From Thermoproteota archaeon (GTDB taxonomy: Archaea; Thermoproteota; EX4484-205; JAAOZP01), in NCBI GenBank assembly GCA_038848185.1, contig JAWCNV010000010.1:1361-65360 (forward strand): a stretch of DNA of 64,000 nucleotides, written 5' to 3'. Below the pieces are notes generated by a model. It was not told where the DNA came from. It made no database searches and worked only from the letters and a program-made list of their open reading frames with translations. Positions 7,956 through 60,448 of the stretch are shown one piece after another. A program made the translations under genes and the position numbers. Numbering within the stretch: the stretch's first letter is position 1; each line of letters starts with the position of its first letter.

Positions 7956-8156
7956 GGGTTTCCTACCTCATGGGAGAAAAATAAACATTGCGGGCATAAG
8001 TGAGGACATTCTAAGTATTCGGATGAGAATTTTCTCCATACGCTATTAGCCGAAAAGATTACATGTTTAGCCTTCACCGCGCAACATCCAGAATGTCCTT
8101 GAAAACTAGCATAATTTAGGTTTATTAGTGCCGTCAAGTCTAAGATAACTTGGAAA

Positions 8157-17955: not shown

Positions 17956-17990
17956 ATATTTTTTTCCTAGTTTTTGATTATTGTTTTCAT
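17956..17990 (+). terminator. T-tract terminator candidate (ATATTTTTTTCC...TTTTTGATTATTGTTTTC)
   Basis: T7 run beginning 16 nt after the stop of the 626-aa gene; archaeal terminators are oligo-T tracts. Confidence 0.4.
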
Positions 17991-18003
17991 TATATGCTAG
18001 TAA

Positions 18004-18014
18004 AACTTATATAC
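18004..18014 (+). promoter_or_regulatory. TATA-like element (ACTTATATACT) for the 683-aa gene
   Basis: Centred about 34 nt upstream of ATG 18044. Confidence 0.35.
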
Positions 18015-18043
18015 TTCCAAACATCCTATTAGACGATGGTAAA

Positions 18044-20032: not shown

Positions 20033-20052
20033 ATCGTTCGTATAAAAACCCG

Positions 20053-20080
20053 GATATTTTTTTCCTCATGTCTTTTCAAA
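20053..20080 (+). terminator. T-tract terminator candidate (GGATATTTTTTTCCTCATGTCTTTTC)
   Basis: Same ATATTTTTTTCC motif as at 17956, beginning 21 nt after the stop of the 683-aa gene. Confidence 0.4.
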
Positions 20081-20143
20081 ACCAGAATCACTATTAAATT
20101 TAATAACTGCCAGCGGACAATAAGGATAGTTGGAGTGAAGTTA

Positions 20144-20154
20144 AATTTATAAGT
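20144..20154 (+). promoter_or_regulatory. TATA box (AAATTTATAAG) for the 485-aa gene
   Basis: Centred about 29 nt upstream of ATG 20178. Confidence 0.45.
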
Positions 20155-20177
20155 AAGAGTCTCCTCCCCGTGTCTTC

Positions 20178-24786: not shown

Positions 24787-26031
24787 CTACTCTTTTTTCT
24801 TTCTAATCTCTTGAAGCAAAGTTAGGATTTCAATCATGGCTCTGCCATTGTGGTATGCCGCCTTCCAGATTCCAGCCTTGTTTCCAAAAGCCTTTCCGTT
24901 AGGCTTAACCACGCTATACCAATCTCCATTCTTCCAATCAACCTGATATTTCTCTATCCAGTCCAGCGTCTTTGCAAAGTATTTTAGGTAGGAAGGTTCT
25001 CCCGTTAGATGATACATGTAGGCTTCGCATACAAGTGCCTCAGCCTGAATCCACCAGACCTTATCCAACCTGTCTGCAGGCTTATTAATCGGTCCGCTTT
25101 CATAGACTCCTCCCTTCTTATTATCAAAACCGTATTTGGCAGAATAGGCGAAAACCGTTTTATAAAAGTCGGCGAGTACACTTTGGGGAATTTTTAACAG
25201 GTCACAGGCTTTTGCGACGAGCCAAATATTCTCCAAATTATGTCCATATGAGACTCGATCATGCCGGACTCCGTGAAGTGGCGTCCAATCTAAGTGGTGT
25301 GTTTCAGTGCATAAACCATTATTTTTCCGGAGGACCGAATTGCTAAGTATCAAGATTAATTCATGCAGCCGCTCTCTGGCCAACATGTCTCCAGTAGCTT
25401 TGTAAAGGGTTGTTAAAGCCTCAAGTAGGTGAAGATGAGTATTCATCGATTTAAATTCCGGAGGAAAGTAAAAACGCTTTCTTTCTATGGAAGTTGCAGT
25501 TGACCAGTCCTTAGGGAAGTACTCTTTGTACCCACCGTGTAAAGAATCATGTGAATGTTTCTCCATAAGATTAAAGAGGTTTAAAGCCATTTCTAATGCT
25601 TCCTGATCCTTACTGGCCATTGCAAACTCTGAGAGAGCATAGAGCCCGAAGGCTTGACCATACATGACCTTGTCGGGTTTAAGAACTTGGCCTTGATGAT
25701 CAACTTCCCAGAAAAAGCCCCCGTTCTCCAAGTCCCACATGTGGTCACGCAGGAACCGGTAGCCGTGCTTGGCGGCTTCTAGTTCTTCTTTACCGCCCCA
25801 ACCTGTGTTAAAGAGTTGGGAGAAATACCAGACCATGCGTGCCTGTGTCACAATCATTTTGGTTCCCTTACCTATCAGCTTACCATTTATATCGTGGTTC
25901 AGATAATAGCCCCCGTTTTCACTATCTATAGTTCTAGGATACCAGAACGGCTTAATGTTTTCATTCAGAATCTTTTCAAGCCTGTTTTCAACAGAGTCAT
26001 AAAACTTTTCAACATCCTTTATTTCCGACAT
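24787..26031 (-). CDS. N-acylglucosamine 2-epimerase (AGE) superfamily protein, possibly cellobiose/mannobiose 2-epimerase
   Basis: 414 aa, no signal peptide; (alpha/alpha)6-barrel AGE-family hallmarks by eye (Trp/His-rich repeats, overall size); sits in a beta-glycan hydrolase cluster. Confidence 0.5.
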   Translation of the reverse strand: MSEIKDVEKFYDSVENRLEKILNENIKPFWYPRTIDSENGGYYLNHDINGKLIGKGTKMIVTQARMVWYFSQLFNTGWGGKEELEAAKHGYRFLRDHMWDLENGGFFWEVDHQGQVLKPDKVMYGQAFGLYALSEFAMASKDQEALEMALNLFNLMEKHSHDSLHGGYKEYFPKDWSTATSIERKRFYFPPEFKSMNTHLHLLEALTTLYKATGDMLARERLHELILILSNSVLRKNNGLCTETHHLDWTPLHGVRHDRVSYGHNLENIWLVAKACDLLKIPQSVLADFYKTVFAYSAKYGFDNKKGGVYESGPINKPADRLDKVWWIQAEALVCEAYMYHLTGEPSYLKYFAKTLDWIEKYQVDWKNGDWYSVVKPNGKAFGNKAGIWKAAYHNGRAMIEILTLLQEIRKKKE

Positions 26032-26212
26032 TTCCCTTCGAGGAGCCTTCTTATTGGTTTTTAAAAAATCTTTTGGCGTGTCAATACGTTACTCCAGAAA
26101 TTATTTCTTCGCTGCGGAAATTAATGGGAATAGTGGGAATTCTTGAAACACGTTAACAAGGCAATAACACATATACAGATTTCAACTACACTTCTTTAAA
26201 CAGGATTTGGCA

Positions 26213-27295
26213 CTACTTCTCTAAAAAGCTACGTATCAAGTTGAATAGCTCTCTGTCAAGCCTGTCGCCATTGGGAAGCTTCTCTGTCAAGAATTCCTCT
26301 CTACCGGTTTCGATGATTCCAAAGGGGCCTCTTAGGTTCCATTGCGCCCAACCTATTCCATGCTCAGAAAGAATACTTAAGACATCCCTATACCAGTTTA
26401 GCATAGACCTTCTGTTAACCCTAACTGGGAAAATACCAAGTTCGCCACAGTGTACGAATATCCCTTTCTCCTTAAGCTTCAAATAGGGCTTCATCCATTT
26501 TTCAAGCCAAGCCTTATCAACATAGACCCCTTTCCACTTCAGAAAAGCATCTCGGTAAGGAGAATCTACATAGTTATCGAGATTTGGGGCTTCACCAGGA
26601 TACTCGGGCTGCTCCTGATACATGTAATACGGGTAAACCCAGATAGCGCCTAGATGGGTCAGCCAACTGGGCTCATACATATGGAAGCTCTGCCCGAAAA
26701 AGGGGTCATCTATGCTTGGGACAGGCTGATATCCTTCTTCAGTTATGAGACCGTCAGCTATCACTAGACGATCTTCATCAATATCTCTTATGGCCTGCAA
26801 CATTCTCTTACAGAAATCGCGGTAATTGTCTATGCTTGTTGCCTTAGGGTCCCTAGAAGAATCTCCTGCAACAGGCTCATTCACAAGGTTAAAGCTCAGA
26901 TAACGGTTTTCATAATCCTTATACCGTTTAGCGAAAATCCTCCAATGGTATTCGCAGGCATCTGCAGCTTCCTTATCTCTCCAGAGACTTAATGGTTCAA
27001 GAGGCCAGTTAATACAGTACCCGGGTGCCCTATGGAAGCAGATGTTTACATGCACCCCGTATTTCTTACCGAATTCCACAGCCTGATCTATCTCTTTCAA
27101 AACCTTCTCGTTTATATTATAGAAGTTTCCATTGACAATCCAGCATCTATAGTCCATGGGGAGACGCACAAAGTCAAAACCCCATTCCGCCATCCTCTGA
27201 AAATCCAGCTCTAGGAAGGGCTTGTTTCCATGCACCCCAAACTTCTCTAACAGGTTGAATCCTCGCAGATGTCCGAAACGATATATTTCCGCCAT
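26213..27295 (-). CDS. Glycoside hydrolase family 5 (intracellular cellulase/mannanase-type)
   Basis: 360 aa, no signal peptide; acid/base FNLVNEP, nucleophile FVHCGELG, HMYEP motif; starts 4 nt after the upstream GH42-like stop (operon). Confidence 0.8.
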   Translation of the reverse strand: MAEIYRFGHLRGFNLLEKFGVHGNKPFLELDFQRMAEWGFDFVRLPMDYRCWIVNGNFYNINEKVLKEIDQAVEFGKKYGVHVNICFHRAPGYCINWPLEPLSLWRDKEAADACEYHWRIFAKRYKDYENRYLSFNLVNEPVAGDSSRDPKATSIDNYRDFCKRMLQAIRDIDEDRLVIADGLITEEGYQPVPSIDDPFFGQSFHMYEPSWLTHLGAIWVYPYYMYQEQPEYPGEAPNLDNYVDSPYRDAFLKWKGVYVDKAWLEKWMKPYLKLKEKGIFVHCGELGIFPVRVNRRSMLNWYRDVLSILSEHGIGWAQWNLRGPFGIIETGREEFLTEKLPNGDRLDRELFNLIRSFLEK

Positions 27296-27299
27296 TTCT

Positions 27300-29354
27300 C
27301 TACATCCTCCTTAGAAGGTAAGCTGCTCCACGGAAGCTCGGTAGCCTGACTTTAAATCTTACTGCCCCTCCCTGAATCTTCATATCAACAGGACTTTCGC
27401 TAACAAACTCTGTAAGACTATACTTGTTTCCTCCGAGTTTTTGATTTACACATATCTCTGTTTCAGAAGGCTCGTTTAAATGGTTAATAGCTAGAATAAT
27501 GCTTCTGTCCTTTCCTTTCCAAACAGCTGTCTCTACGTCAGGATTGCTTGACTCTGCGGGCGGATCAACTCCAAAACCCTTAAGGGTTCCAGAGATAAAC
27601 AGCCTCACAGCCTCGTTTCGTCTAATGCGAAACGGAAACATTACCGCTAAGTCGTAGTGGCCAGGGTAATTAGAATAGTCCCAACCTATGAGGCTTCCTA
27701 TCTTGACAACCGAGCCTTTTCCATCTCTAAATTGGATGATTGCAGGATCACCATTCTCAAACTTAGCTAGCATCTTCGAGTCTGAAGGTGCCTTCAGCTT
27801 CTCGCATTTGTTTCCCACCGGTACTATTGTTTTAAGCAATCCCATGGACCGTGAAACATTTTCGTCGAAAAAATAGACAACGTAGTCGGCTGAAGGCTTT
27901 TCAACAAGCTCCGGGTATACTGATTTAAAACCTCCTTCCTCTTCTCCAGAATAATCAGTCAGTAAAATGCCTCCATTGTTAACGAAACGCTTGATTTCTG
28001 AGGCGACATTCTCAGGCAGTACTGGGGCACCTATTGTGCAAATCACTTTATAACCGCGTTCCTTCAAAATCCCGTTTACAACCTGTTCTTCAGAGATTAT
28101 ATCAACCGGAAAACCGCTTCTCACAAGCGCCATGTAGAAAAGCAGGTTATCCATGTTATAAGCGTCATCGGCCTTAAGCTCCATGCTTGTCCAAGGATAT
28201 AATAGCGCCACATCTGCCTTGCTTAACTCATAGTCTTTCAGCACTTTGACAAGCCTGTTGAACTCTTCATTAGGTTGAGTTGTCTTACGCCAAAGCTCAA
28301 GGTTCTTCCAGTCTACCCACCATACTATGCCCAGAGCCCCGTGGGCTAGTGTGGAGTAGACCTGTTCAGACATGCTTTCAACAGGAACCTTGTAGCCAAG
28401 CCACGAGTTGAAGGCTTGACCATTAGCTGTGTAAATCTTATCGAAACCCATCGCGGTTCTCAAAATATCCTTAATATATTCGAAGACGTAGATGACGTAA
28501 CGATGGTCAAACTCCAGCGGGTACATGTCCTCGTGGCCCACATCTATTACGCGTGCCATCCTCCATATATCGTTACCAGAGTAAACACATTGATAACTGC
28601 AAGGGTAAAAATCGTTCACCTCGTGTGTAGATAATAGGGGGACTATGCTTTTAGCATATGTAATGAGTTCTCGGAGAAAATTCGGGATTATTTCAGCATG
28701 GTAATCAAACCATTCTTTCCAAAGTGAAACGTTACTCGGTTCCCTCGGCGGCTCTAAACTCATCCAACCAGCGAAACTTGTTCCGTGTTTACGGTTGAAC
28801 TCTCTAATATCACCATATTTTTCAGTCATGCTCCTCCTGAAGCCTTCTACGCAATGTTTACAGTAGCAGCAGGGTTTCAACGGGCCTCCTCCGAACTCTG
28901 GAACCTCCGTCCTATAATATGCTTCATGGATGAAACTCATTAACGGGAGACCGCCTATTCTGTAGAGAGCAGGATGCGAACCATATTTTCTCAGAAACTC
29001 TCCGATCCGCATTTTGCTTTCCTCGAGCAAGTAGGGATGGTTAAAACAACCTATATTTGACCAGCGAGGATCATCTGAAGTCGAGCCGTCTGCGCACACT
29101 ACTTTAACCTCAGGATGCTCCTTTATTGATATGATTGGCATGAATACCGGAACTATTTTGATACCTTGCTCCTCAGCCTTTGTGAAGAAATAGTTTAACT
29201 TCTCATCCTCCACATACAGTACGAAGAGCCATACATTATTTGCATTAGCTTTCTTCATCTCTTTCAAATACTCTTCTATCTGCTGATTACTAGTCTCCTT
29301 TGAATAGTAGAAATATGCTCCTACGATCGGCTCGCGTAAATATTCTTCTCTCAT
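27300..29354 (-). CDS. GH42-like beta-galactosidase family protein
   Basis: 684 aa; Cys cluster C...PCCYCKHC resembling the Zn site of GH42 beta-galactosidases; C-terminal GATase1-like trimerisation-type region (KVICTIGAPVLP...GGILLTDYSGEE); family assignment tentative. Confidence 0.55.
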   Translation of the reverse strand: MREEYLREPIVGAYFYYSKETSNQQIEEYLKEMKKANANNVWLFVLYVEDEKLNYFFTKAEEQGIKIVPVFMPIISIKEHPEVKVVCADGSTSDDPRWSNIGCFNHPYLLEESKMRIGEFLRKYGSHPALYRIGGLPLMSFIHEAYYRTEVPEFGGGPLKPCCYCKHCVEGFRRSMTEKYGDIREFNRKHGTSFAGWMSLEPPREPSNVSLWKEWFDYHAEIIPNFLRELITYAKSIVPLLSTHEVNDFYPCSYQCVYSGNDIWRMARVIDVGHEDMYPLEFDHRYVIYVFEYIKDILRTAMGFDKIYTANGQAFNSWLGYKVPVESMSEQVYSTLAHGALGIVWWVDWKNLELWRKTTQPNEEFNRLVKVLKDYELSKADVALLYPWTSMELKADDAYNMDNLLFYMALVRSGFPVDIISEEQVVNGILKERGYKVICTIGAPVLPENVASEIKRFVNNGGILLTDYSGEEEGGFKSVYPELVEKPSADYVVYFFDENVSRSMGLLKTIVPVGNKCEKLKAPSDSKMLAKFENGDPAIIQFRDGKGSVVKIGSLIGWDYSNYPGHYDLAVMFPFRIRRNEAVRLFISGTLKGFGVDPPAESSNPDVETAVWKGKDRSIILAINHLNEPSETEICVNQKLGGNKYSLTEFVSESPVDMKIQGGAVRFKVRLPSFRGAAYLLRRM

Positions 29355-29607
29355 TTGTCTTTCAACCCCTTAGCAAGCTTCTAATTTTTATGAGTCTGTT
29401 AATAAAGAAGATTACTGACAAAACAATCACAGCTAAAAATTGCATGGTAAATAACCAACAAAACTTTTCTAAACAACTTTCATGCATAACTGGCATCTGA
29501 CGTACCTATCGATATCGATGGAAGCTTGTTAGTCATTGAAATATTTGTTGAAGATTCGCCGAACCTAATAAGTTTTTTAAACGAAGTTTTTAAAGGCTGA
29601 AAAACTG

Positions 29608-29617
29608 TTAAATATTA
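29608..29617 (+). promoter_or_regulatory. TATA box (TTAAATATTA) for the GH3 gene; divergent promoter region shared with the GH42-like operon
   Basis: Centred about 33 nt upstream of ATG 29646; a second TATA-like element (rc CATAAAAATTA at about 29384-29394) sits 30-40 nt upstream of the minus-strand start at 29354. Confidence 0.4.
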
Positions 29618-29645
29618 CTGATTCATAATTGAACTGTGTTTAAGC

Positions 29646-31955
29646 ATGGGAGAAAGACCAGTTTACCTAGATCCTTGCGCTCCTGTTGAACTTAGGGTAA
29701 AGAGCCTCTTAGAGCGAATGACTCTTGAGGAGAAGATTGCTCAACTCCAATCAGTCTGGCCCAGCATGGTTATTAAAGAAGCATTGACTGAGGAAAAGCT
29801 TAAGGAATTTCTAAGCATTGGAATAGGGGAAATAACACGAGTCTCCGGGGCGTTAGAAGTTAAGCCAGGTGATGGAGCAAGAATAGCCAACGATATACAG
29901 AAGTTCCTTATGGAGAAAACTCGGCTACGAATACCTGCCATAATTCACGAGGAGTGTTTAACAGGCTTCATGGCTAGGGGGGCTACAGTCTTTCCACAGG
30001 CCATAGGCTTAGCCAGCACGTGGGATCCTGAACTCGTTGAGAAAGTGGCATCAGTCATCAGAAGGCAGATGAGGACTTCAGGAGCACATCAGGGTCTTGC
30101 ACCCGTTCTCGACGTGGTTAAGGATCCGAGGTGGGGTAGGACTGAAGAGACATACGGCGAGGACCCCTATCTAGTTGCACGCATGGGAGTAGCTTATGTC
30201 AAGGGTCTTCAGGGTAAGGATTTAAAGACAGGCATCATAGCTACGGTAAAGCATTTCGCAGCCCATGGTTTTCCGGAAGGAGGAAGAAATTGTGCCCCTG
30301 TTCATGTCTCACCCCGAGAGCTCAGAGAGGTTTTCCTGTTTCCGTTTGAAGCAGCAGTAAAGCTCGGAGGAGTATTATCGCTTATGAATGCTTACCATGA
30401 GGTTGATGGTGTACCATGTGCATCCTCAAAGATACTTCTAACAGACATCTTGAGAGGTGAATGGGGTTTCAAAGGCTTCATCGTATCTGACTATTTTGCA
30501 GTTAGAATGCTGGAGAACTTTCATCATACCGCTCTCGACGCTAAAGATGCTGCTACACAGGCCCTCAGCGCTGGGATAGATATCGAGCTCCCCCATATAG
30601 ACTGCTACGGTGGCCCTTTACTTGAGGCTTTAAAAAATGGAGCAATATCTGAAGAGTTTTTGGATTTAGCCGTCTCAAGAGTTTTAAGCGCGAAGTTTCT
30701 CCTAGGTCTTTTTGAAAATCCCTATGTGGATCCAGAATCGGCTAAAAGCCAGTTTGACACTGAAGCTGATAGGGAGCTTGCTCTCAGGGCAGCCAGGGAG
30801 TCCATAGTCCTTTTGAAAAATGATGGTGTTCTTCCATTAAAGGCTGTTAAATCCATCGCCGTCATAGGGCCTAACGCAAATAGCAAGAGGAATCTTCACG
30901 GCGACTACAGTCTCACGGCTCATATGGATAGCGATCAGAATCGCCCTAGTTATGGGGAGGTGTTCAGAGAGGGGGCTGTGAAAACCGTCAGCATACTGGA
31001 GGGCATTAGGAATAGGGCACCCGAAGGGCTAGTCATTAAATATTCACTTGGTTGCGACATTGCCACCGAGTCAAAAGATGGGTTTAAGGAGGCTTTGGAA
31101 ATCGCCTCAAAATCAGACATAATAATAGCAGTGGTGGGCGAGAAATCAGGGCTATTCGGAACCGGGACATCAGGAGAGGGTTGCGATACACCTTCCCTTA
31201 GACTTCCGGGCGTTCAGGAGGATTTGGTTAAGGAACTCTGCGATACTGGAAAACCTGTTGTACTCATCCTGGTGAATGGCAGACCCATTTCGCTCGGTTG
31301 GATGGCTGAACGGTGCTCAGCAATAATAGAGGCATGGTATCCTGGCGAGGAAGGCGGGAACGCCGTTGCAGACATACTATTTGGGTACTATAATCCGGGG
31401 GGAAAGCTTCCCATCACCTTCCCCCGTGACGTTGGTCAGATTCCATTGAATTATAATATGAAGCCTTCTTCATTCAGAAACTATTTAACCATGGACGCCA
31501 AGCCTTTGTTTCCATTTGGCCATGGGTTGAGTTACACAAGCTTTGAATACAGTGCTCTCAAGATAGAACCAGAGAAAACAAGCACAACTGGACAAGTCAA
31601 GATATGCTTCAAGGTTAAGAATGCTGGAGAATATGCGGGAGACGAGGTTGTTCAGCTTTATGTAAAAGATATTGTGGCCAGTGTCTCTAGACCAGTTATG
31701 GAGCTTAAAGGTTTCAAAAGGATTAGTCTTGAAGCCGGGGAAACAAAGGAGGTTGAGTTCACACTCTTCACTGAACAGCTCGCCTTCTATGATCAATACA
31801 TAAGGTTGATTGTCGAACCCGGGATGTTCGAGGTGATGGTAGGGCGCTCTTCTGAAGACATAAGACTTAGAGGAGAATTCAATATTGCCGGGGAGACGAA
31901 GGTTATTAATAGGAGAACCATCTTCTTCAGCAAAGTAGAAGAATTTAAAGTCTGA
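29646..31955 (+). CDS. Glycoside hydrolase family 3 beta-glucosidase (BglX-like) with C-terminal Fn3-like domain
   Basis: 769 aa; GH3 N-terminal domain motifs, nucleophile-containing GFKGFIVSDY, KHFAAHG, C-terminal beta-sandwich; no signal peptide. Confidence 0.85.
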   Translation: MGERPVYLDPCAPVELRVKSLLERMTLEEKIAQLQSVWPSMVIKEALTEEKLKEFLSIGIGEITRVSGALEVKPGDGARIANDIQKFLMEKTRLRIPAIIHEECLTGFMARGATVFPQAIGLASTWDPELVEKVASVIRRQMRTSGAHQGLAPVLDVVKDPRWGRTEETYGEDPYLVARMGVAYVKGLQGKDLKTGIIATVKHFAAHGFPEGGRNCAPVHVSPRELREVFLFPFEAAVKLGGVLSLMNAYHEVDGVPCASSKILLTDILRGEWGFKGFIVSDYFAVRMLENFHHTALDAKDAATQALSAGIDIELPHIDCYGGPLLEALKNGAISEEFLDLAVSRVLSAKFLLGLFENPYVDPESAKSQFDTEADRELALRAARESIVLLKNDGVLPLKAVKSIAVIGPNANSKRNLHGDYSLTAHMDSDQNRPSYGEVFREGAVKTVSILEGIRNRAPEGLVIKYSLGCDIATESKDGFKEALEIASKSDIIIAVVGEKSGLFGTGTSGEGCDTPSLRLPGVQEDLVKELCDTGKPVVLILVNGRPISLGWMAERCSAIIEAWYPGEEGGNAVADILFGYYNPGGKLPITFPRDVGQIPLNYNMKPSSFRNYLTMDAKPLFPFGHGLSYTSFEYSALKIEPEKTSTTGQVKICFKVKNAGEYAGDEVVQLYVKDIVASVSRPVMELKGFKRISLEAGETKEVEFTLFTEQLAFYDQYIRLIVEPGMFEVMVGRSSEDIRLRGEFNIAGETKVINRRTIFFSKVEEFKV

Positions 31956-32105
31956 ATTAGAAGAAATGCTTAAAGGACGCATCAAGTAGCTTTTTATACT
32001 GTCTTTTTATGAGGAAACGTAAAGTAATGTTTTAAAGGTTTTTTCAGGAAGCAATATTTAAATCTCCTGAAGAGGTTGTATCTTTATATGGGGCATGAAA
32101 GCGGA

Positions 32106-33263
32106 ATGAGGATGGGAGTAAAACCTTTTGCCGTGGCCTGCATATTCTTGCTACTAGTGTTAAAGTCATATTCTATTCTGATTAGCGCACAATTAGAAGG
32201 CATGTTCCAAGTAACTGAGGAAGATAATGAAGTAGAGGTGGCTTATCTTGAAGCCGGTCTAGAGAAATTCAAGGTCATTATAAACAAGAATGGAGGTATC
32301 ACAGAGGTTCAGGTATCTAACATACCATACACCAGTGTCGCCGGCACACAAGTTTGGAGCCTATGGGAGCAGACATGGAACACTGATCCAATGGCACCCC
32401 CAGTTGTTGTGAACAAGGGTGACTACGTTGAAGCAAGGTTTTACGGGAAGTACCGGACCGCTGAACTCTATGTGAAAACCAATTACACTATTTCGAAGAC
32501 TGGATTAATCCTCGTCTCATCCATCATCGAGGCTAAGAGGGATGAGCCATTAATTATGCAGACAGCATGGATGGTCTACTTCTCAACACCTATCTTTGCA
32601 AACGAAAAGGCTTATATCAAGTTTGAGAAAGAGGTAACGGAAGTGCAGCTTCCTGCATCTGTGACTAGTGGCTCATTCTATGGCGGTCAAGATGTCGTCT
32701 ACTGGGTTGACTTCAGCAAGCCCACTGCGGGAATTGCCTTCATAAATATGGCTCCAGGCTCTGAAGATTGGTATGAAACCACTGTGAGAGATGAGAGGCA
32801 ATATGGATACCATGATGTCTACTCCGTATACTTTGCCCACACCGCCTATGGAGAGGGAGCCATGTCCATGGGTGACAAAAGGGTCTCAAAGGTTGCCCTA
32901 TACATTCACGGTCAAGGAGGCTACGAAGGTAACAAGGAGATTCTAGATCTAATATCGGATATTGCTAGTACAAGTGTTGAATGCGAGAAAGCTCTTAAAA
33001 ACGTTGGGGAGAATACTGAAGCTGGGCGGCTGGCTTCCCAAGCAATGGAAAACGTTAACTCGGGACTTGAAAAACTCCTTAAGGGCGACTTCGAAGGTTC
33101 TGAGACTGACCTTGGAAACGCCAAGAAACTGCTTGAAGAAGTCAAGGGCATCGGTGGAGTGTTTGAGAAATCACTTCCTGCAATCGTAGGAGTGATAGTA
33201 ATCGTCGTCATAATAGTGGTGATAGTTACTCGACGTAGAAAAGCAAAGAAAACAATTTCTTAA
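32106..33263 (+). CDS. Secreted protein with C-terminal TM anchor (…IVGVIVIVVIIVVIVTRRRKAKKTIS); paralog of 9863-11056
   Basis: Start chosen at ATG 32106 (MRMGVKPFAVACIFLLLV; the ORF-track TTG at 32076 overlaps the TATA element TCTTTATATGG). Shares NGGITEVQVSNI, KTGLILVSS and VALYIHGQGGYEGNKEILDLI blocks with the paralog. Confidence 0.65.
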   Translation: MRMGVKPFAVACIFLLLVLKSYSILISAQLEGMFQVTEEDNEVEVAYLEAGLEKFKVIINKNGGITEVQVSNIPYTSVAGTQVWSLWEQTWNTDPMAPPVVVNKGDYVEARFYGKYRTAELYVKTNYTISKTGLILVSSIIEAKRDEPLIMQTAWMVYFSTPIFANEKAYIKFEKEVTEVQLPASVTSGSFYGGQDVVYWVDFSKPTAGIAFINMAPGSEDWYETTVRDERQYGYHDVYSVYFAHTAYGEGAMSMGDKRVSKVALYIHGQGGYEGNKEILDLISDIASTSVECEKALKNVGENTEAGRLASQAMENVNSGLEKLLKGDFEGSETDLGNAKKLLEEVKGIGGVFEKSLPAIVGVIVIVVIIVVIVTRRRKAKKTIS

Positions 33264-33528: not shown

Positions 33529-35205
33529 TTATTTCTTCCTCTTATTCTTATAGATAATCCCTACGATCATCATGACCACTATGAGTAACAGCCCGATTAT
33601 AGCGTATTGCATGGGTGTTGGAGCTGGTGTCGGTGTAGGAGTTGATGTGGGAGTGGGAGTCGGGGTTGAAGTTGGTGTGGAAGTAGGTGTCGGTGTTGGT
33701 GTGACTGTTGGCGCCGAAGTAGTAAAGTAGTCTATGTAGAGATCGCCGCTCCACGCCGCAACATTCCACTGACCTATTTGAACACCCAGTTTTCTCACAG
33801 CATTTTCCCAAGTAATGTCTTCTCCACCGAGGTCCCAAGTAACTTGAGTCCAGCTTCCTCCAGCTAGGTTTATCGCTGCACTATTCTTCCAGTCCCAGGT
33901 GGCGCTCTGCATGAATATTTGTGCTTTAGCATCTTGCGGAACCCAGACCCATACGGAGAGTAGCTTATCCTGAAAATCTGCTAGGTTGCCCTCAGCAAAA
34001 TATACACATACTCCACCAGCAGCACCGTTTGATGCATCGAAATATGTCTTTAAGCACCCAGCTCCATGATATGCCTTCTCAACGGTCCACATAGCTGAAG
34101 TAAGAGCACCTTGCCCGACGTTTGGGTCGACATCCCAGCCCTGAGTATCTGTCTCAAAATCAAACAGCACCTCCCCAAATACCGGGGTTGGTGTAGGGGT
34201 AGGGGTGGGTTTAGGCGTCGGAGTAGAAGTGGGGATGGGTGTTGGCGATGGAGTAACAGTTGGTAAACCCAAAACTTCTCTTATTGCATTCTCCACCTCA
34301 ACGGTGTATCCTCCATATTGCTGGTAGACCTCTAAGACCCGTTCCACGATATTGGTGTAGGGTTCATAACCGCCAGTGCCATGGAAGAAAAGTGCCATCT
34401 CAGTTACTCTTTCCTCGTTTTCAAGCATAGCGCCCTGTCCCCATCCACCGTGCCAGAAGGTTACGATGAATTTCAGTTCATCCCAGCCTCTTCCATCCTG
34501 TACTATAAAGGCAAGGTTAGCCTCAGGGTTAAGGTTCATAAGGGTGACACCGCCCTCATTCACGCTTAGGTCTACCCAGTTTGGCGGAGGTTTGATAATT
34601 TGAGTGACATCTTGATTTATAAATGTGGATGGTAGGTTTAATTCTTCGGTGCCCCACAAATAATTAATATATATGTTTTTACCGGAATACTCCTCTGTCT
34701 TTAACTTGACAACCCAGCCTGTTGTCCTTATGTTAGGGGCTCCTCCAGATGGTGCTCTCATCGTCAGCCTTATGAATACGAAGCCGAACTTAGTTACCGT
34801 CACCTCCGTAACCAAACTGACAAGATGGGTTTTCGTCTGACTGTAACACGTTATTTTGGTATAGGTATCCCTCTCCTCTATTGTTGGTTCATCGACAACT
34901 GTTCCCCATGTCTGTTCCCAGTCATCCATCCAAATGAAGCCTGCTGCTCTTTCAGCAACCTCTACTCCTCGGCTTCTAAGCATGTTTATTCCACCAGTTT
35001 TCCAGAGCTCGATGTAGAAGAGTTCATTATCCTGAGGATCATAAACCCAGACATCTATTATATTACCGGTTTCACGTGGCTGAACCACGATTTTATTTTC
35101 CTCCTGCGCATAAACTTGAATCGGAAAAGGTTGGAAACAAAGCTGTATAAAGTTTAGACAGACGAACATTACTAGAATCATTATTGTTTCCTTCCTCTTG
35201 ATCAT
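33529..35205 (-). CDS. Modular surface protein: signal peptide, surface-paralog domain, Pro/Thr linker, CBM-like beta-sandwich, Pro/Thr linker, C-terminal TM anchor (cassette B terminal gene)
   Basis: 558 aa. Domain 1 homologous to the 397/395-aa paralogs (LWKTGGINML...TKFGFVFI; ALFFHGTGGYEPY). Linker 1 PTVTPSPTPIPTSTPTPKPTPTPTPTP (about 34198-34282). Domain 2 FDFETDTQGW...EKAYHGAGCLKTYF...LSVWVWVPQDA...LYIDYF homologous to the insert of the GH5-like enzyme at 5171-7955. Linker 2 PTVTPTPTPTSTPTSTPTPTPTSTPTPTPAPTP (about 33613-33717). C-terminal TM IIGLLLIVVMMIVGIIYKNKRKK. Confidence 0.75.
   Translation of the reverse strand: MIKRKETIMILVMFVCLNFIQLCFQPFPIQVYAQEENKIVVQPRETGNIIDVWVYDPQDNELFYIELWKTGGINMLRSRGVEVAERAAGFIWMDDWEQTWGTVVDEPTIEERDTYTKITCYSQTKTHLVSLVTEVTVTKFGFVFIRLTMRAPSGGAPNIRTTGWVVKLKTEEYSGKNIYINYLWGTEELNLPSTFINQDVTQIIKPPPNWVDLSVNEGGVTLMNLNPEANLAFIVQDGRGWDELKFIVTFWHGGWGQGAMLENEERVTEMALFFHGTGGYEPYTNIVERVLEVYQQYGGYTVEVENAIREVLGLPTVTPSPTPIPTSTPTPKPTPTPTPTPVFGEVLFDFETDTQGWDVDPNVGQGALTSAMWTVEKAYHGAGCLKTYFDASNGAAGGVCVYFAEGNLADFQDKLLSVWVWVPQDAKAQIFMQSATWDWKNSAAINLAGGSWTQVTWDLGGEDITWENAVRKLGVQIGQWNVAAWSGDLYIDYFTTSAPTVTPTPTPTSTPTSTPTPTPTSTPTPTPAPTPMQYAIIGLLLIVVMMIVGIIYKNKRKK
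33600..33720 (-). repeat. Low-complexity coding repeat (GGTGTnGGn)n encoding Pro/Thr-rich linker
   Basis: Visible in sequence as tandem GGTGTTGGAGCTGGTGTCGGTGTAGGAGTTGATGTGGGAGTGGGAGTCGGGGTTGAAGTTGGTGTGGAAGTAGGTGTCGGTGTTGGTGTG; a second copy at about 34190-34285. Confidence 0.8.
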
Positions 35206-35388: not shown

Positions 35389-36060
35389 CTAACCTGTAGG
35401 ACGCTTAGCTACTGATTCAATAGCCTTCTTGCCTAGTGAAATGATGATCCTCCATACTTCTAGCCAAGCGGCTAGTAATGTAAATATGAGGCCAATCCCA
35501 GATATGAAAATGCCTAGACTCCATTGTGATTTTAGGAAACTGCTATCATAAGATGTTTCGCTTGATGGTGGCGGAAGCCCGCTGAAGACTGTTATCCGCG
35601 TCCAGCCTTGGACGAAGACACCTAAACATATCATCATCAGCGTCGTCCCAATGGTTAAGCCCAAGGCTCTTTTCGTCCAGGTTTTTGCTAAAGCACTAAT
35701 GATAATTATTATAATGGCAATGGGCTGTAGAGTAAGAACACTAGATGTAGGCGGTTTATCCCATCGCCCAGAAAAGACGAGTTTCAGAGTGGTCTCATCA
35801 TACTGTTGCCATAGAGGGTAGACTTTCCACTGCACCTCTCTACCATCTAAGTTACCGTTTAACTCGTACCAAGGAAGGAATAAGCTTACTGTGAGCAGTG
35901 CTCCGGCGATAAGCCCCAGACTGTTTCTACCGCCTTCCAATGGGTCGGGTCGACGCTGACTGTTTATAAAACTAACTCTTAAGCATGATGCATAGAGAAA
36001 AAGAAATAGGGTTTTCCTCTTAGAATGGGAAGAAGAATCTGATGATGCCGAGTACAGCAC
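35389..36060 (-). CDS. Small multi-TM membrane protein, cassette B-specific
   Basis: ORF-track GTG start at 36060 overlaps the upstream gene by 41 nt; an in-frame TTG at 35940 (…PDP-L-EGGRNSLGLIAGALLTVSLFLPWY) would give a 183-aa, non-overlapping protein with about 4 TM. Start uncertain. Confidence 0.45.
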   Translation of the reverse strand: MLYSASSDSSSHSKRKTLFLFLYASCLRVSFINSQRRPDPLEGGRNSLGLIAGALLTVSLFLPWYELNGNLDGREVQWKVYPLWQQYDETTLKLVFSGRWDKPPTSSVLTLQPIAIIIIIISALAKTWTKRALGLTIGTTLMMICLGVFVQGWTRITVFSGLPPPSSETSYDSSFLKSQWSLGIFISGIGLIFTLLAAWLEVWRIIISLGKKAIESVAKRPTG

Positions 36061-37993
36061 TGAGGAATAGCGCTAGGTTCCAGCCAACCATTATTCCAAC
36101 TGCAAGTGGAAGCCCCTTGTTCTCCCAGAGCGGGACTCCGCCTACTCTGAATGTTATCTTCTTGAGTACGTATGCGATCGTCCAGCTTGTTAGCATGAAG
36201 GTGTTGACTCCTGCCACACCGGCCCATACTCCTATGGGGTCGAGTGGGAACTTGAACCATAGCATTCTTGCTAAGTATATGACAACTATTACTATTCCGC
36301 CAGCTATAGCTGACCAGACCCAATTCCAGTCGGGCGACGGGTACTGCTGCATCCTAGTGGGATCATGGAGCATGTACATCCACCATCCATCCGTAGTTAG
36401 GCTCCTGTAGAGTTTTGATCCAAACATGTGTCTGAGCTGGAGTGCGAGTGGGAATGAGACTATTGCGGAGACCACCATTGAAATGGTCATTGCTATAGCT
36501 ATATCGCGGAGGTTCGTGCCAGTAGCCTTTGCTATTCTGAATGTAATCATGACGTCAGAGTTATTTGTCCAGTTGAGAACGTTCTGGGGTCTATTTATCA
36601 TAAGGTAGTCATTCACCATAGGTGCCGTAACCTTGCTTGCAGTTACACCCGTATACATCCAGTTGATCCAGCCTGGAGACTCCATCCAGTCGCCGAGCCA
36701 TGGGCCTCCGTAACCAGCGCTTCGCGCACGTACGCTCCCATGAAGGAAATGCACGAAAATTATCATGCCTGCCCCTAGGAGGCTGGTTGCACCTATTTCG
36801 ACATTTGCAACAAATAGGAGCACTATTGCCACAAAAAATATGATGCAGCTGAACCTGAAGGGTATCGGTTCTTGAGCATCCACCTTAGGGTCAGGTTTAC
36901 GAGCCCACTTTAATGTTTGAACAAGGTAACGCCAGTTTAAGACAATCCATGTCAATATTATTGCGGTAACCATGCCGTATGATGCCATGGCATAGAAGTA
37001 GAATGGTGCTCCCTGTCCCAGCACATCTCGCTTGGTAGTTACCTCCGAGACTGTTAAGGCAGTCGAGTAGTAGCCAAAGTAATAAGCTATCTGAGGAAGG
37101 ACGATCATGAATACTATGTTAGAGATAATTCCTGAGAGCAGTATATCCGTAGGTATCAGGTAGGCGAAAGCTATTGCTGAAGGATTGAACTGTAAGCCGT
37201 TCAGACCTACCAGCGTCTCCTTAAGTGGCGTTTTAGTAGTATCTATAGTGAAGAGAGCCCAAGATATCCAGGGGTCCTTTCCCAAACCATATATGTCTGG
37301 GAACCATGGGAACACATATTTCAAAGCCTGCGGCAGGAATATCAGAAAGCCTATTATACCGCCTATCAAGAGAAGTAGCCTCCTTCCCTTCCTTTCCTCA
37401 GCCTTTGAAAGGTCCATAATAAGTTCAGTGCCCGTGTATGAGGAAGGATATGGAAGCGCTTCCACATCCATCCATTGGCGCCTATAAATACTCATTAGAC
37501 TGAGCATGAAGACCCACCATAGTATTGAAAGCAGTATCCATCCTGAGAGCGCAGGCAGATATTCTCCCCACGGTACTTCAACTCCTCCTTTAAGCTGGAG
37601 ACGTGCAATATCCAATGTTGGACCCCAGAGCATTGAGAACCATTGCCTCCACTGGGGGTTGTATAATCTTGAAGTCAACATGTTATCAAGTATACCCATG
37701 GGGACATTTCCATAGGAGTACATGACCGTGACTGTGAATGTAGCCCAGAGTACTGTGAGAAGCTTCGCATTTATCTTCTTCAGCCTCGGGAGCCCCTCCC
37801 CCAGAAGTAGAAGTATACTTAGGATTATCAGGCCTATGTTTCCAGGGCTGAAAGTACTGCCTCCCACCCAGCTTGGGCTGAAAGCGGTCACCGTTATGCT
37901 GAATGCTGAGAGAATTGCTGCTATAATCGCTGTGATAACCATCATCAAAGGAGTCATTATTCTTGAGGGAACTTCAGCCGCTTCTTCGGCCAT
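36020..37993 (-). CDS. Polytopic Trp-rich membrane protein, subfamily P2 (cassette B)
   Basis: 657 aa; MAEEAAEVPS start; VEALPYPSSYTG motif; C-terminal GGVPLWENKGLPLAVGIMVGWNLALFLSAVLGIIRFFFPF homologous to 18044-20032. Confidence 0.65.
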   Translation of the reverse strand: MAEEAAEVPSRIMTPLMMVITAIIAAILSAFSITVTAFSPSWVGGSTFSPGNIGLIILSILLLLGEGLPRLKKINAKLLTVLWATFTVTVMYSYGNVPMGILDNMLTSRLYNPQWRQWFSMLWGPTLDIARLQLKGGVEVPWGEYLPALSGWILLSILWWVFMLSLMSIYRRQWMDVEALPYPSSYTGTELIMDLSKAEERKGRRLLLLIGGIIGFLIFLPQALKYVFPWFPDIYGLGKDPWISWALFTIDTTKTPLKETLVGLNGLQFNPSAIAFAYLIPTDILLSGIISNIVFMIVLPQIAYYFGYYSTALTVSEVTTKRDVLGQGAPFYFYAMASYGMVTAIILTWIVLNWRYLVQTLKWARKPDPKVDAQEPIPFRFSCIIFFVAIVLLFVANVEIGATSLLGAGMIIFVHFLHGSVRARSAGYGGPWLGDWMESPGWINWMYTGVTASKVTAPMVNDYLMINRPQNVLNWTNNSDVMITFRIAKATGTNLRDIAIAMTISMVVSAIVSFPLALQLRHMFGSKLYRSLTTDGWWMYMLHDPTRMQQYPSPDWNWVWSAIAGGIVIVVIYLARMLWFKFPLDPIGVWAGVAGVNTFMLTSWTIAYVLKKITFRVGGVPLWENKGLPLAVGIMVGWNLALFLSAVLGIIRFFFPF

Positions 37994-50814: not shown

Positions 50815-50820
50815 GACGCG

Positions 50821-58813: not shown

Positions 58814-58848
58814 AGACCTCAGATTCCAGTTTGATGAGACTGTTTTAA

Positions 58849-59661: not shown

Positions 59662-59710
59662 AGCTCTGCATCTCTGTGAAACATTATTTATGCGTTTTCA
59701 CGAGGATTCT

Positions 59711-60385: not shown

Positions 60386-60448
60386 GGTTAAGCCTGTCTT
60401 AACTTGGTAAAAAGTTTTTTGGAAACATTTGCTCTTCTCTGCTCTAAT

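Follow-up and report, generated by a model that had tools for sequence, protein, structure and literature searches.

In anaerobic bacteria, an epimerase-assisted route for beta-mannan combines a cellobiose 2-epimerase with a GH130 mannosylglucose phosphorylase and an ABC importer. The mannan clusters of Thermotoga maritima and Caldanaerobius polysaccharolyticus rely on solute-binding-protein-dependent ABC importers, and the PULs of Bacteroidota (SusC/SusD) group the genes for surface binders and an endo-enzyme with those for exo-enzymes inside the cell and for an importer dedicated to the same glycan. The known substrates of the OPT family of transporters are oligopeptides, glutathione and metal chelates, and we know of no member of this family that transports sugars.

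Here, a window of 64,000 nucleotides (the whole stretch of DNA that was analysed) from a hot-spring Thermoproteota archaeon was studied; the same gene sets were found in relatives labelled Bathyarchaeia. Four cytoplasmic glycan enzymes are flanked in this window by two copies of a membrane gene set, hereafter named cassettes. While nothing about the enzymes is unusual, the cassette is a transport gene set that has not been described before, and OPT-superfamily permeases encoded in it may replace the usual ABC importer for sugar uptake.

Cytoplasmic enzymes of the island

According to the ORF list, the ORFs of the region 24787-33263 coincided exactly with the positions given for them in an earlier note on this DNA. 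The four enzymes named there (AGE, GH5, GH42-like and GH3) were confirmed by Pfam with E-values far beyond chance. Their reported lack of signal peptides also held, since the four maximal ORFs have polar N-termini and no N-terminal hydrophobic segment; the cytoplasmic location is a call made from N-terminal sequence and hydropathy. All four enzymes being cytoplasmic, imported oligosaccharides are needed. The fifth ORF inside the region encodes a surface-anchored protein, not an enzyme.

The AGE-superfamily epimerase (24787..26031, minus strand; PF07221 GlcNAc_2-epim, E 5.9e-51) gave its best PDB matches with 8h1k (215.7 bits) and the cellobiose 2-epimerase 5zig (213 bits), and scored ~181.6 bits against the cellobiose 2-epimerase sequences 9l8i and 3wkf. 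Equivalents of the epimerase residues R66, H200, H259, E262, W322, W385 and H390 (numbered as in the Rhodothermus marinus cellobiose 2-epimerase) are all there. The 17-residue insertion of 8h1k is missing, and the NCBIfam EpiA score (223 bits) is below the equivalog cut-off of 800. The proposal that this protein fits epimerase-assisted pathways is supported by its cellobiose 2-epimerase-like character and its full catalytic residue set.

The GH5 gene (26213..27295, minus strand; PF00150, E 5.7e-24) follows the GH42-like gene after a gap of 4 bp and encodes an oligosaccharide hydrolase with the NEP acid/base and GELG nucleophile motifs. Its best PDB matches were T. maritima TM1752 (1vjz, E 5.6e-61) and Caldanaerobius Man5B (3w0k, E 4.4e-52). 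Man5B is an intracellular, bifunctional mannanase/glucanase for imported oligosaccharides, chiefly those of the manno- type but cello-oligosaccharides as well (PMC3835425).

The divergent GH42-like protein (27300..29354, minus strand) matched PF02449 (E 3.7e-12) and PF08532 (E 5.2e-08), weakly yet above the curated cut-offs. Its AF2 model (pLDDT 88.9, pTM 0.92) retrieved with Foldseek the GH42 beta-galactosidase 5dfa as top match (E 1.7e-34, TM 0.75, 15% identity), followed by GH35 and GH164 proteins of like architecture. With the GH42 beta-galactosidases (Gan42B, PDB 5dfa/4oif) it shares the three-domain architecture, the conserved glutamate pair and the four-cysteine cluster; H143-E144, E330, C103, C163, C165 and C168 are invariant among 44 homologs. 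The family has homologs in Bathyarchaeia, Thermofilaceae, Chloroflexi and Bacillota. It differs from those enzymes in its low identity and in the residue before the acid/base glutamate, which is His, not Asn, in 44/44 sequences. No characterised member of this GH42-like family was found.

The GH3 gene (29646..31955, plus strand) is divergent from the GH42-like operon and encodes an exo-glycosidase of the beta-xylosidase/beta-glucosidase type with three GH3 Pfam domains (N-terminal, E 2.8e-83; C-terminal, E 9.3e-60; Fn3-like, E 2.6e-25). Its best PDB match was the beta-xylosidase 7zb3 (908 bits), assigned to T. maritima (PMC11071339), and the NCBIfam beta-xylosidase/alpha-L-arabinosidase model gave 825 bits, short of its cut-off (1050). 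With a beta-xylosidase as the nearest match of GH3, the island is more than one for mannan or cellobiose. Two more cytoplasmic glycosidases are encoded in the window: a GH4 protein (1492..2838, plus strand) of the AglA-like alpha-glucosidase or alpha-galactosidase type, and a protein with GH97 Pfam domains (60449..62392, minus strand), which may provide a debranching step and whose best family match was retaining alpha-galactosidase (NCBIfam, 527 bits against a cut-off of 800).

Search for an ABC importer and a phosphorylase

All non-nested ORFs of the window of at least 150 aa were scanned with Pfam, two short ORFs nested in the C1 and GH3 genes being left out. Neither SBP_bac, BPD_transp or ABC_tran domains nor a GH130 or GH94 phosphorylase was present in the 64 kb, as the earlier note had claimed for a classical ABC importer set and for a phosphorylase. 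A conventional importer just outside the window, named in that note as the finding that would speak against it, was likewise missing from the 8.5 kb upstream on the source contig, as was a phosphorylase. The ABC-2 unit at 109-933 pairs with an upstream ABC_tran/DrrA-type ATPase; this is an exporter-type pair, in agreement with its previous description.

The flanking cassettes encode OPT-like permeases and FtsX-type giants

Each cassette encodes four membrane proteins, namely the FtsX-type A and C and the polytopic, ~650-aa B and D. D2 (36020..37993, minus strand) contains DUF6785/DUF6784 (PF20581, PF20580), and its AF2 model (pTM 0.81) matched barley Yellow Stripe 1 in Foldseek (7wst, E 3.4e-08, probability 1.00, TM 0.58-0.64), with the runner-up at E 0.013. 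D1 (17981..20032, plus strand; DUF6785/DUF6784) is its paralog, with 28% identity. B2 (41143..43107, minus strand) and its paralog B1 (16062..17942, plus strand; 37% identity) represent a divergent branch of the OPT family. B2 itself has no Pfam match; however, the B-family profile retrieved 473 clusters, PF03169 (OPT) was matched by 19 of the 43 sampled members, and some members are named 'OPT/YSL family transporter' by their sources. When the profiles of the D and B families were compared with hhalign, 550 columns aligned with 99.7% probability (E 3.6e-27). Both B and D are thus members of the OPT/YSL superfamily, and as candidates for the path of translocation they are much stronger than the FtsX-fold A and C. 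A small protein with four TM segments by hydropathy is encoded downstream of D2 (35389..36060, minus strand); its orthologs come after D in loci L007, L011, L016 and L024. The earlier interpretation stands for the enzymes and for the missing ABC importer and phosphorylase, but its description of the cassettes as FtsX-fold needs correction, since each of them also encodes two OPT/YSL-superfamily permeases, which are recognisable transporter candidates.

A2 (43124..47749, minus strand; 1541 aa) consists of an M28-like pseudo-peptidase ectodomain (PF04389) and an FtsX-type membrane domain (PF02687); its paralog A1 (11397..16055, plus strand; 31% identity) has M28-like, MacB_PCD and FtsX domains. 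The catalytic and metal-binding residues of M28 are replaced in 12/12 orthologs of A that were examined, so the 'peptidase' domain has lost its active site and is predicted to be inactive. C2 (38108..41134, minus strand; ~1010 aa, PF02687) is predicted from hydropathy to cross the membrane eight times; its ectodomains are large and its cytoplasmic tail of ~165 aa lacks a P-loop, and C1 (21716..24760, plus strand) is its FtsX-type paralog (29% identity). No ATPase gene (ABC_tran) was seen beside the cassettes at the ~10 loci inspected.

Surface-anchored proteins

The non-enzymatic ORF of the island, E2 (32076..33263, plus strand), lies 120 bp downstream of the GH3 gene and is co-directional with it. 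In the protein, a signal sequence is followed by a ~270-aa domain, a helical stalk and a C-terminal TM segment with a basic tail, and no relative was found in Pfam, NCBIfam or PDB. Two paralogs are encoded in the window. E1 (9863..11056, minus strand) is divergent from A1 and is likewise surface-anchored. E3 (33529..35205, minus strand) carries a mannanase-type galactose-binding-like (CBM-like) module (PF21253 Mann_GBD_bact, E 3.8e-08) between two Pro/Thr linkers, preceded by the E-family domain and followed by a C-terminal anchor. Orthologs of E2 adjoin cassettes in L011, L016 and L025. A 485-aa protein with a signal sequence and a C-terminal TM segment (20178..21635, plus strand) is also a recurrent neighbour of cassettes. 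The 927-aa secreted or anchored GH5-mannanase-like protein (5171..7954, minus strand; gene start as called on the source contig) has an N-terminal signal anchor and an inserted Mann_GBD module. Its matches to PF21253 and, in PDB, to the GH5 mannanases 8gf3 and 3pz9 were weak; it is a candidate extracellular endo-glycanase, and its homologs adjoin cassettes in L007, L011, L016 and L024.

Linkage of the cassette to glycoside hydrolases in other genomes

In Bathyarchaeia loci L007, L011, L015, L016/L024 and L025, the genes A-B-C-D adjoin GH5, AGE, GH42-like, E-family and 927-aa genes; protein identities are 46-94% and the gene orders vary. In L028, from a distant metagenomic lineage (54% GC), D-A-B-C directly follows genes for a GDSL esterase, a trehalase/MGH1-like GH and a weakly GH42-like protein. 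In L029 (33% GC), where B falls into one cluster with a protein from a Thermoproteales MAG, a D-A-B cassette is one gene away from a cytoplasmic GH51 arabinofuranosidase. A lone D homolog was found amid GHL6/fucosidase-like, GH20b, NamZ and deacetylase genes. The linked loci are mostly of one archaeal class and not fully independent. The earlier claim that the cassettes are the only adjacent candidates for uptake is supported, and their linkage to glycoside hydrolases recurs in other lineages. Cassettes without a glycoside hydrolase neighbour also exist: those of L021/L022 lie amid housekeeping genes, and that of L013 has as neighbours only a galactokinase and a GDPD phosphodiesterase. Distant D homologs adjoin corrinoid methyltransferase genes, which indicates that the family is not sugar-specific.

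Proposed function of the locus

The reading that we prefer, and in which we place about half of our confidence, takes the region for the cytoplasmic half of a locus that serves the use of beta-glycans, most likely beta-mannan or glucomannan together with other beta-linked oligosaccharides, and the OPT-like permeases for its probable importers. Bathyarchaeia have been proposed to favour hemicelluloses and mannans (PMC11697101). In the following scheme we infer the substrate, sugar transport by B and D, what A and C do, and that hydrolysis follows epimerisation. The 927-aa, E-family and 485-aa surface proteins would act on the extracellular polymer by binding and cutting it, two of them (E3 and the 927-aa protein) carrying mannanase-type binding modules. 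The oligosaccharides would enter through B and D, for which gene neighbourhood is the evidence of sugar transport, and the proton gradient that drives other OPT proteins is the probable energy source of this step. A and C, with their large ectodomains, inactive M28-like domain and no nearby ATPase, are probably an extracellular capture or hand-over scaffold of the same complex. In the cytoplasm, GH5 would shorten manno- and cello-oligosaccharides, the epimerase would interconvert reducing-end mannose and glucose of disaccharides, and the GH42-like enzyme and GH3 would free monosaccharides hydrolytically, which would explain why a phosphorylase is not needed. Against this reading, GH3 looks more xylosidase-like than mannan-related, and the substrates of the GH42-like and GH3 enzymes are putative.

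One alternative, possible if somewhat doubtful, is that a conventional importer encoded elsewhere in the genome (CUT1, CUT2, Opp-type ABC or MFS/GPH) feeds the island and that the cassettes serve another envelope task, either peptide or metal-chelate uptake via the OPT-like permeases or surface-protein handling. Their adjacency to GH genes would then reflect shared ancestry in one lineage or a looser clustering for nutrient acquisition. The adjacency recurs, however, in three lineages that are far apart, and the GH families involved differ between them; it is kept among the Bathyarchaeia loci despite the shuffled gene order, and proteins with carbohydrate-binding modules accompany the cassettes. 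The known OPT substrates agree with this alternative, as do the cassettes of L021/L022, the D homologs beside methyltransferase genes and the small portion of the genome inspected (only ~72 kb). The M28-like fold kept in A also favours it, but the replacement of the catalytic residues in all orthologs argues against a surface aminopeptidase that feeds a peptide transporter.

The idea of the earlier note, that the FtsX-fold A and C form the uptake path of an unusual ABC importer with its ATPase encoded elsewhere, is very improbable. The lack of ABC_tran genes at the inspected cassette loci and of a P-loop in the cytoplasmic tails speaks against it, and true permease candidates are encoded in the same cassette; moreover, MacB/FtsX-type proteins transmit force and, to our knowledge, do not conduct substrates across the membrane. 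In its favour are the FtsX and MacB_PCD domains, the large ectodomains and the conservation of A and C with GH genes. That the enzymes recycle glycans made by the archaeon itself, from glycoproteins or exopolysaccharide, and do not serve growth on external polysaccharide, with the cassettes acting in envelope biogenesis, is very improbable as well: the partners in the cassette are all envelope proteins and many neighbours are surface-anchored, but the closest characterised relatives of GH5, the epimerase and GH3 use plant-type beta-1,4 oligosaccharides. The mannanase-type binding modules and the secreted GH5-mannanase-like protein also speak against it, and the GH51 and fucosidase-type genes near the cassette proteins of other lineages suggest foreign glycans.

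Comparison with known systems

As in the epimerase-assisted bacterial beta-mannan route, an epimerase is encoded beside a manno/cello GH5 and the enzymes are cytoplasmic; here the host is an archaeon, GH130 and the ABC importer are missing from the window, and epimerisation is presumably followed by hydrolysis through the GH42-like enzyme and GH3 instead. The mannan clusters of T. maritima and C. polysaccharolyticus contain the closest relatives of GH5 (TM1752 and Man5B), and the beta-xylosidase of T. maritima is the closest to GH3, whereas the neighbours in our locus are OPT-like permeases and FtsX-type giants.

The OPT/YSL superfamily (PF03169, 7wst) agrees with the permeases in the fold of D, the Pfam matches of the B family, the size of ~650 aa and the many TM segments. 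The window proteins themselves remain below the Pfam OPT threshold, D belongs to DUF6785/DUF6784, the superfamily is known to carry peptides and metal chelates rather than sugars, and two such genes are grouped here with two genes for FtsX-type giants. With the Type VII ABC transporters (MacB, LolCDE, FtsEX), A and C share the FtsX C-terminal domain and A1 the MacB periplasmic core domain, and their hydropathy would fit two tandem four-helix units. They differ in having no nucleotide-binding domain, fused or nearby, in any locus seen, in their much larger ectodomains with an inactive M28-like module, and in the tail of C2, which has no recognised fold.

This locus follows the logic of the Bacteroidota PULs, where one cluster encodes the surface binders, the endo-enzyme, the importer and the exo-enzymes of the cell interior, and diverged paralogous copies and GH families that vary by lineage are common to both. 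There is no homology to SusC/SusD and no outer membrane; this locus is built instead from OPT-like permeases, FtsX-type proteins and archaeal surface proteins with a C-terminal anchor.

Organization and location of the island enzymes

All window ORFs of 150 aa or more were scanned against Pfam, except two short ones nested in the C1 and GH3 genes. The minus strand of the island carries the genes of an AGE-superfamily epimerase (24787-26031; PF07221, E 5.9e-51, with 343 of the 347 profile positions covered), a GH5 enzyme (26213-27295; PF00150, E 5.7e-24) and a GH42-like protein (27300-29354), which gave weak matches above the cut-off to GH42 (PF02449, E 3.7e-12) and GH42M (PF08532, E 5.2e-08). 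The plus strand carries the gene of a GH3 protein with all three GH3 domains (29646-31955) and that of E2 (32076-33263), for which no enzyme family was matched. A gap of 4 bp separates the GH42-like gene from the GH5 gene, and the epimerase gene lies 181 bp further on. GH3 is divergent from the GH42-like operon across a 291-bp spacer and is followed after 120 bp by E2. A perfect 12-bp palindrome, ATCGATATCGAT, is present inside this spacer (window 29508-29519) and may serve as an operator. None of the window genes was recognised as a regulator, and the words common to the promoters of the island and of the cassettes were AT-rich and TATA-like, apart from one 11-mer. The orthologous intergenic sequences compared were ~99% identical and thus uninformative on motif conservation.

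The ORF finder returns maximal reading frames, and all four enzymes had polar N-termini without any N-terminal hydrophobic segment. Since even the maximal ORFs start in this way, the cytoplasmic location of the four island enzymes, which the earlier note had deduced from the lack of signal peptides, is well supported. That note had also stated that the window contains no sugar importer composed of solute-binding protein, permease and ATPase, and no phosphorylase. Both statements were borne out among the scanned ORFs, where neither solute-binding proteins, BPD_transp or ABC_tran domains nor GH130 or GH94 matches were detected; MFS matches were likewise absent from these ORFs, and no sugar importer was found in the 8.5 kb upstream of the window. 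The ABC-2 protein at 109-933, previously read as part of an exporter, is paired with an upstream DrrA-type ATPase, which is indeed an exporter arrangement.

The same genes were found in a near-identical sister MAG and in several raw assemblies, and relatives sharing these gene sets go under the names Candidatus Bathyarchaeia or Thermoproteota from 'JZ' hot-spring bins. An archaeal origin is in keeping with the ribosomal L13e gene that lies immediately upstream, with the NurA-HerA-Mre11-Rad50 operon, and with surface proteins that have Pro/Thr linkers and are anchored at the C-terminus. The GC content is even along the window (0.42-0.50), a profile that gave no sign of recent acquisition of the island. 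Rfam and tRNA scans found no RNA genes in the window, and its right end encodes small membrane or secreted proteins. The double-strand-break repair operon (NurA-HerA-Mre11-Rad50, window 47975-54073) is divergent from cassette 2 and has an arrangement typical of archaea. A second cytoplasmic sugar-related group (window 57785-62392) comprises a 342-aa DUF6786 protein, a class-II amidotransferase-like protein, ThuA and a GH97 alpha-galactosidase-like protein.

Specificity of the island enzymes

The best PDB relatives of the epimerase were 8h1k (215.7 bits), the cellobiose 2-epimerase 5zig (213 bits) and 9l8i/3wkf (~181.6 bits), the last two being 412-residue cellobiose 2-epimerase sequences in the match table. 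In a residue-level alignment to 9l8i the window protein retained all seven equivalents of R66, H200, H259, E262, W322, W385 and H390. We take this numbering to be that of the Rhodothermus marinus cellobiose 2-epimerase, and the residues to be the catalytic ones together with the Trp pair that stacks on the non-reducing sugar. The top match, 8h1k, is presumably a mannose epimerase and carries a 17-residue insertion that is absent from the window protein; this absence is the one indication that favours an epimerase of beta-1,4 disaccharides over a mannose 2-epimerase or an enzyme acting on free N-acylglucosamine. With NCBIfam EpiA the score was 223 bits, against an equivalog cut-off of 800, so the protein is a relative and not an equivalog. 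From these comparisons, the window epimerase is best described as cellobiose-2-epimerase-like. In three of the homologous loci a 529-aa protein without Pfam match is encoded directly after the epimerase (L007 16804-18393, L011 14153-15742, L015 15205-16794); in those relatives the epimerase may have its missing partner in this protein, of which no homolog was found in the window.

The GH5 enzyme was closest in the PDB search to Thermotoga maritima TM1752 and Caldanaerobius Man5B. Its acid/base motif NEP is read in LVNEPV, and the nucleophile Glu in HCGELG. Man5B, an intracellular enzyme, has manno-oligosaccharides as its main substrates and also acts on cello-oligosaccharides (PMC3835425). At Man5B position 196 the members of GH5_36 have a 100% conserved Arg where His is canonical (PMC3835425); the window GH5 reads SFHMY at the likely equivalent site, which suggests His. 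The GH3 protein has N-terminal, C-terminal and Fn3-like domains and the SDY nucleophile motif in GFIVSDY. Its closest PDB relative (908 bits) was 7zb3, a beta-xylosidase attributed to T. maritima in PMC11071339, and its best NCBIfam match, beta-xylosidase/alpha-L-arabinosidase, scored 825 bits, under the cut-off of 1050, so that no equivalog-level specificity can be assigned.

The AF2 model of the GH42-like protein (pLDDT 88.9, pTM 0.92) superposed in Foldseek on GH42 beta-galactosidases across three domains with a TM score of 0.75 and ~15% identity, GH35 and GH164 enzymes with this architecture ranking after. Pfam (PF02449, PF08532) and Foldseek agreed on an architecture of TIM barrel, trimerisation domain and beta-sandwich. 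The best profile E value against the PDB was 6.7e-13 and covered only part of the protein. Judged from its sequence and predicted structure, the 27300-29354 protein is filed as GH42-like and not as a member of GH42. The GH164 beta-mannosidase profile matched the middle domain only (E 5.5e-4) and its fold ranked below GH42 and GH35, so GH164 is an unsupported, if still conceivable, candidate for the true family.

The GH42-like family has 78 homologs in Bathyarchaeia, Thermofilaceae, Chloroflexi and Bacillota. In a 44-sequence alignment E144, E330, C103, C163, C165 and C168 were invariant, and their positions in the profile alignment suggest E144 as acid/base, E330 as nucleophile and a Cys4 metal site. 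The dyad His143-Glu144 was also invariant in this alignment, in contrast to the Asn-Glu ('NE') motif of clan GH-A. GH26 mannanases also have His-Glu at the acid/base position and, because they share it, a manno-configured substrate is an attractive guess by analogy. Two bacterial contigs carrying GH42-like genes gave no clue to the substrate, and we know of no characterised member of this His-Glu family.

Surface-anchored proteins

E2 combines a signal sequence, a ~270-aa domain for which no relatives were found, a helical stalk and a membrane anchor at the C-terminus, and it is paralogous to E1 (9863-11056) and E3 (33529-35205), as these are to each other. The E family had no PDB relative and, beyond the membrane anchor, no relation to DUF6786 or to the family of the 485-aa anchored protein of cassette 1. 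The Pfam accession of DUF6786 adjoins those of DUF6784/DUF6785; its similarity to the E family was undetectable. The anchor common to the products of 9863-11056, 20178-21635, 32076-33263 and 33529-35205 is a hydrophobic helix with an RRKK-type tail behind it, lacks a PGF motif, and might act as an anchoring or sorting signal particular to this lineage.

A 927-aa protein (5171-7954) has a signal anchor, weakly resembles GH5 mannanases and bears a mannanase-type binding module as an insertion; E3 carries the same type of module between Pro/Thr linkers. The longest ORF at this locus (5171-8494, 1107 aa) has a GTG start and overlaps an RraA-like gene on the other strand; the 927-aa start with the signal anchor, as called in the source contig, appears more plausible. 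A cytoplasmic GH97 protein, whose best match is a retaining alpha-galactosidase, and a GH4 protein are encoded elsewhere in the window. Together, the 927-aa protein, the E3 module, GH97 and GH4 suggest a galacto- or glucomannan as substrate, and the xylosidase-like GH3 leaves a range wider than mannan open. Bathyarchaeia have been argued to prefer hemicelluloses and mannans (PMC11697101).

FtsX-type and OPT-type proteins of the cassettes

The island lies between two paralogous membrane gene sets whose counterparts are 28-37% identical. Cassette 1, on the plus strand, consists of A1 (11397-16055), B1 (16062-17942), D1 (17981-20032), the 485-aa anchored protein and C1 (21716-24760). Cassette 2, on the minus strand, consists of A2 (47749-43124), B2, C2, D2 (37993-36020), a small 4-TM protein and E3. 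FtsX domains (PF02687) were matched in the giant proteins A1, A2, C1 and C2, and the MacB periplasmic core (PF12704) in A1. Pfam and hydropathy revealed in A and C the four-helix FtsX membrane domain, whose TM1 and TM2 flank an extracytoplasmic domain, and hydropathy suggests two tandem four-helix units with large ectodomains. The cytoplasmic tail of A and C (~165 aa) has no P-loop, and no fused or adjacent nucleotide-binding domain (ABC_tran) was found in A, C or any cassette neighbourhood inspected.

An M28-like module is present in A at residues ~230-460. Active M28 peptidases bind zinc through His, Asp, Glu, Asp and His and have a catalytic Glu. In all 12 orthologs compared, HxD is changed to YYDS and EE to HY/HF (GHY/GHF); the first zinc-binding His is now Tyr, and the last His is variable among them. 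Read from these substitutions, the module is a conserved pseudo-peptidase, reminiscent of nicalin and the transferrin receptor. An active surface aminopeptidase feeding a peptide transporter was considered for it and rejected, the M28 catalytic residues being gone.

One important question is what the ~650-aa polytopic proteins B and D are. D matched DUF6785/DUF6784 in Pfam, with no direct match to PF03169, and these families are named nowhere in the literature searched. The AF2 model of D (pLDDT 75, pTM 0.81) matched only barley Yellow Stripe 1, the one solved OPT/YSL member found (Foldseek E 3.4e-08, probability 1.00, TM 0.58-0.64; next E 0.013). A D profile searched against the PDB by sequence only gave no match, so the OPT link needed the fold search and family transitivity. 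B itself had no Pfam match. A profile of the two window paralogs of B retrieved 473 clusters at 50% identity (224 at E <= 1e-30); 19 of 43 sampled family members matched Pfam OPT (PF03169, best E 2.7e-15), and some carry the source name 'OPT/YSL family transporter'. Comparison of the D and B families with hhalign extended over 550 columns, with a probability of 99.7% and E 3.6e-27. By profile and predicted fold, B and D belong to the OPT/YSL superfamily, and through this tie the window contains four recognisable permease candidates. The superfamily is known for proton-coupled uptake of peptides or metal chelates; the gene context of B and D suggests oligosaccharides as substrate. Distant DUF6785/DUF6784 proteins (26-29% identity; L004 10001-12019, L010 251-2356 and 5935-7932) adjoin URO-D-type methyltransferase and B12-binding corrinoid genes, neighbours suggesting that, in other archaea, methylated substrates too are imported by this family.

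Linkage of the cassettes to glycan genes

In Bathyarchaeia relatives (46-94% protein identity), cassettes of type 2 stand beside the GH5, epimerase, GH42-like, E-family and 927-aa protein genes, in a gene order that varies between L007, L011/L012, L015 and L016/L024. Cassettes of type 1 are likewise linked to glycan genes in L025. In L028 (54% GC) the order D-A-B-C directly follows a GDSL esterase, a trehalase/MGH1-like GH and a weak GH42-like gene; in L029 (33% GC), whose B clusters with a Thermoproteales MAG protein, D-A-B is followed by one small gene and a cytoplasmic GH51 arabinofuranosidase; in L026 (65% GC) a lone D lies amid fucosidase-like, GH20b, NamZ and deacetylase genes. Counter-examples were also found. 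A-B-D lies amid housekeeping genes in L021/L022; the type-1 cassette of another Bathyarchaeia MAG (L013) is followed only by glycerophosphodiester phosphodiesterase and galactokinase genes (19445-21488), with no GH; and corrinoid methyltransferase genes are the neighbours of distant lone D homologs. If ~10% of random archaeal positions have a GH within three genes, a value that was assumed and not measured, GH linkage in 4 of about 6 lineages is unlikely by chance (order 1e-3), as a rough estimate and not a proper test.

Proposed pathway and alternatives

The enzymes add new members to known families, and cytoplasmic catabolism of beta-oligosaccharides, taken alone, is highly probable. The locus as a whole may be viewed as one for glycan utilisation in which the transporter set is unconventional. 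In the proposed pathway, surface proteins would capture and cut the polymer, and the OPT-like B and D permeases would import the oligosaccharides, probably by proton coupling, like other OPT proteins; A and C would act as ectodomain scaffolds in the same complex. Inside the cell, GH5 would trim the oligosaccharides, the epimerase would convert their reducing ends, and the GH42-like and GH3 proteins would hydrolyse them to monosaccharides, a phosphorylase therefore being unnecessary. This modifies the epimerase-phosphorylase pathway with which the earlier note had compared the locus: the cellobiose-2-epimerase-like protein does stand beside a GH5, and its GH130 partner, a mannosylglucose phosphorylase, had no match in the window. 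Every transport step is deduced from context, and the complete chain from surface to monosaccharide through OPT-like import, the likeliest of the readings, seems to us evenly poised between right and wrong.

The main alternative is that a conventional importer is encoded at another place in the genome and that the cassettes take up peptides or chelates or have envelope functions. The loci in which cassette genes keep other company would fit it, and the recurrent GH linkage speaks against it; we consider it a lesser but serious possibility, perhaps somewhat doubtful. The earlier note had named the FtsX-fold cassettes as the only adjacent uptake candidate. The cassettes keep that role; that the FtsX proteins are themselves the importer is very improbable, their membrane domains and position notwithstanding, since B and D are the OPT-superfamily permease candidates.

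Beyond uptake by B and D, the cassettes could represent a new, undescribed type of glycan capture and import machine, a reading that we put forward tentatively. This envelope machine would have four parts, two ATPase-less tandem-FtsX giants with large ectodomains, one of them with a conserved pseudo-M28 module, and two OPT permeases, and would cooperate with C-terminally anchored binding proteins. No description of an A-B-C-D cassette or of its association with GHs was found in the literature. The cassettes are seen here in archaea, as judged from the loci other than the two GC-richer ones. Their paralogs would be tuned to different glycans, a view suggested by their differing neighbourhoods (mannan-type, GH51-type and trehalase/GH42-like-type).

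The uncultured Bathyarchaeia are among the most abundant archaea of anoxic sediments and hot springs, and their uptake of plant-derived sugars has been inferred only from genomes. If the proposed import is correct, B and D would be the first OPT-superfamily members to transport sugars, adding a new substrate class; genome surveys limited to ABC and MFS transporters would under-count archaeal polysaccharide users, and FtsX/MacB-fold proteins would gain an ATPase-free role. The cassette also gives DUF6785/DUF6784 and the B family of ~470 clusters, some members of which are already labelled OPT, a concrete functional hypothesis, and the island offers candidate thermophilic enzymes for the processing of mannan and hemicellulose. 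The cassette machine would be a functional analogue of the bacterial polysaccharide utilisation loci.
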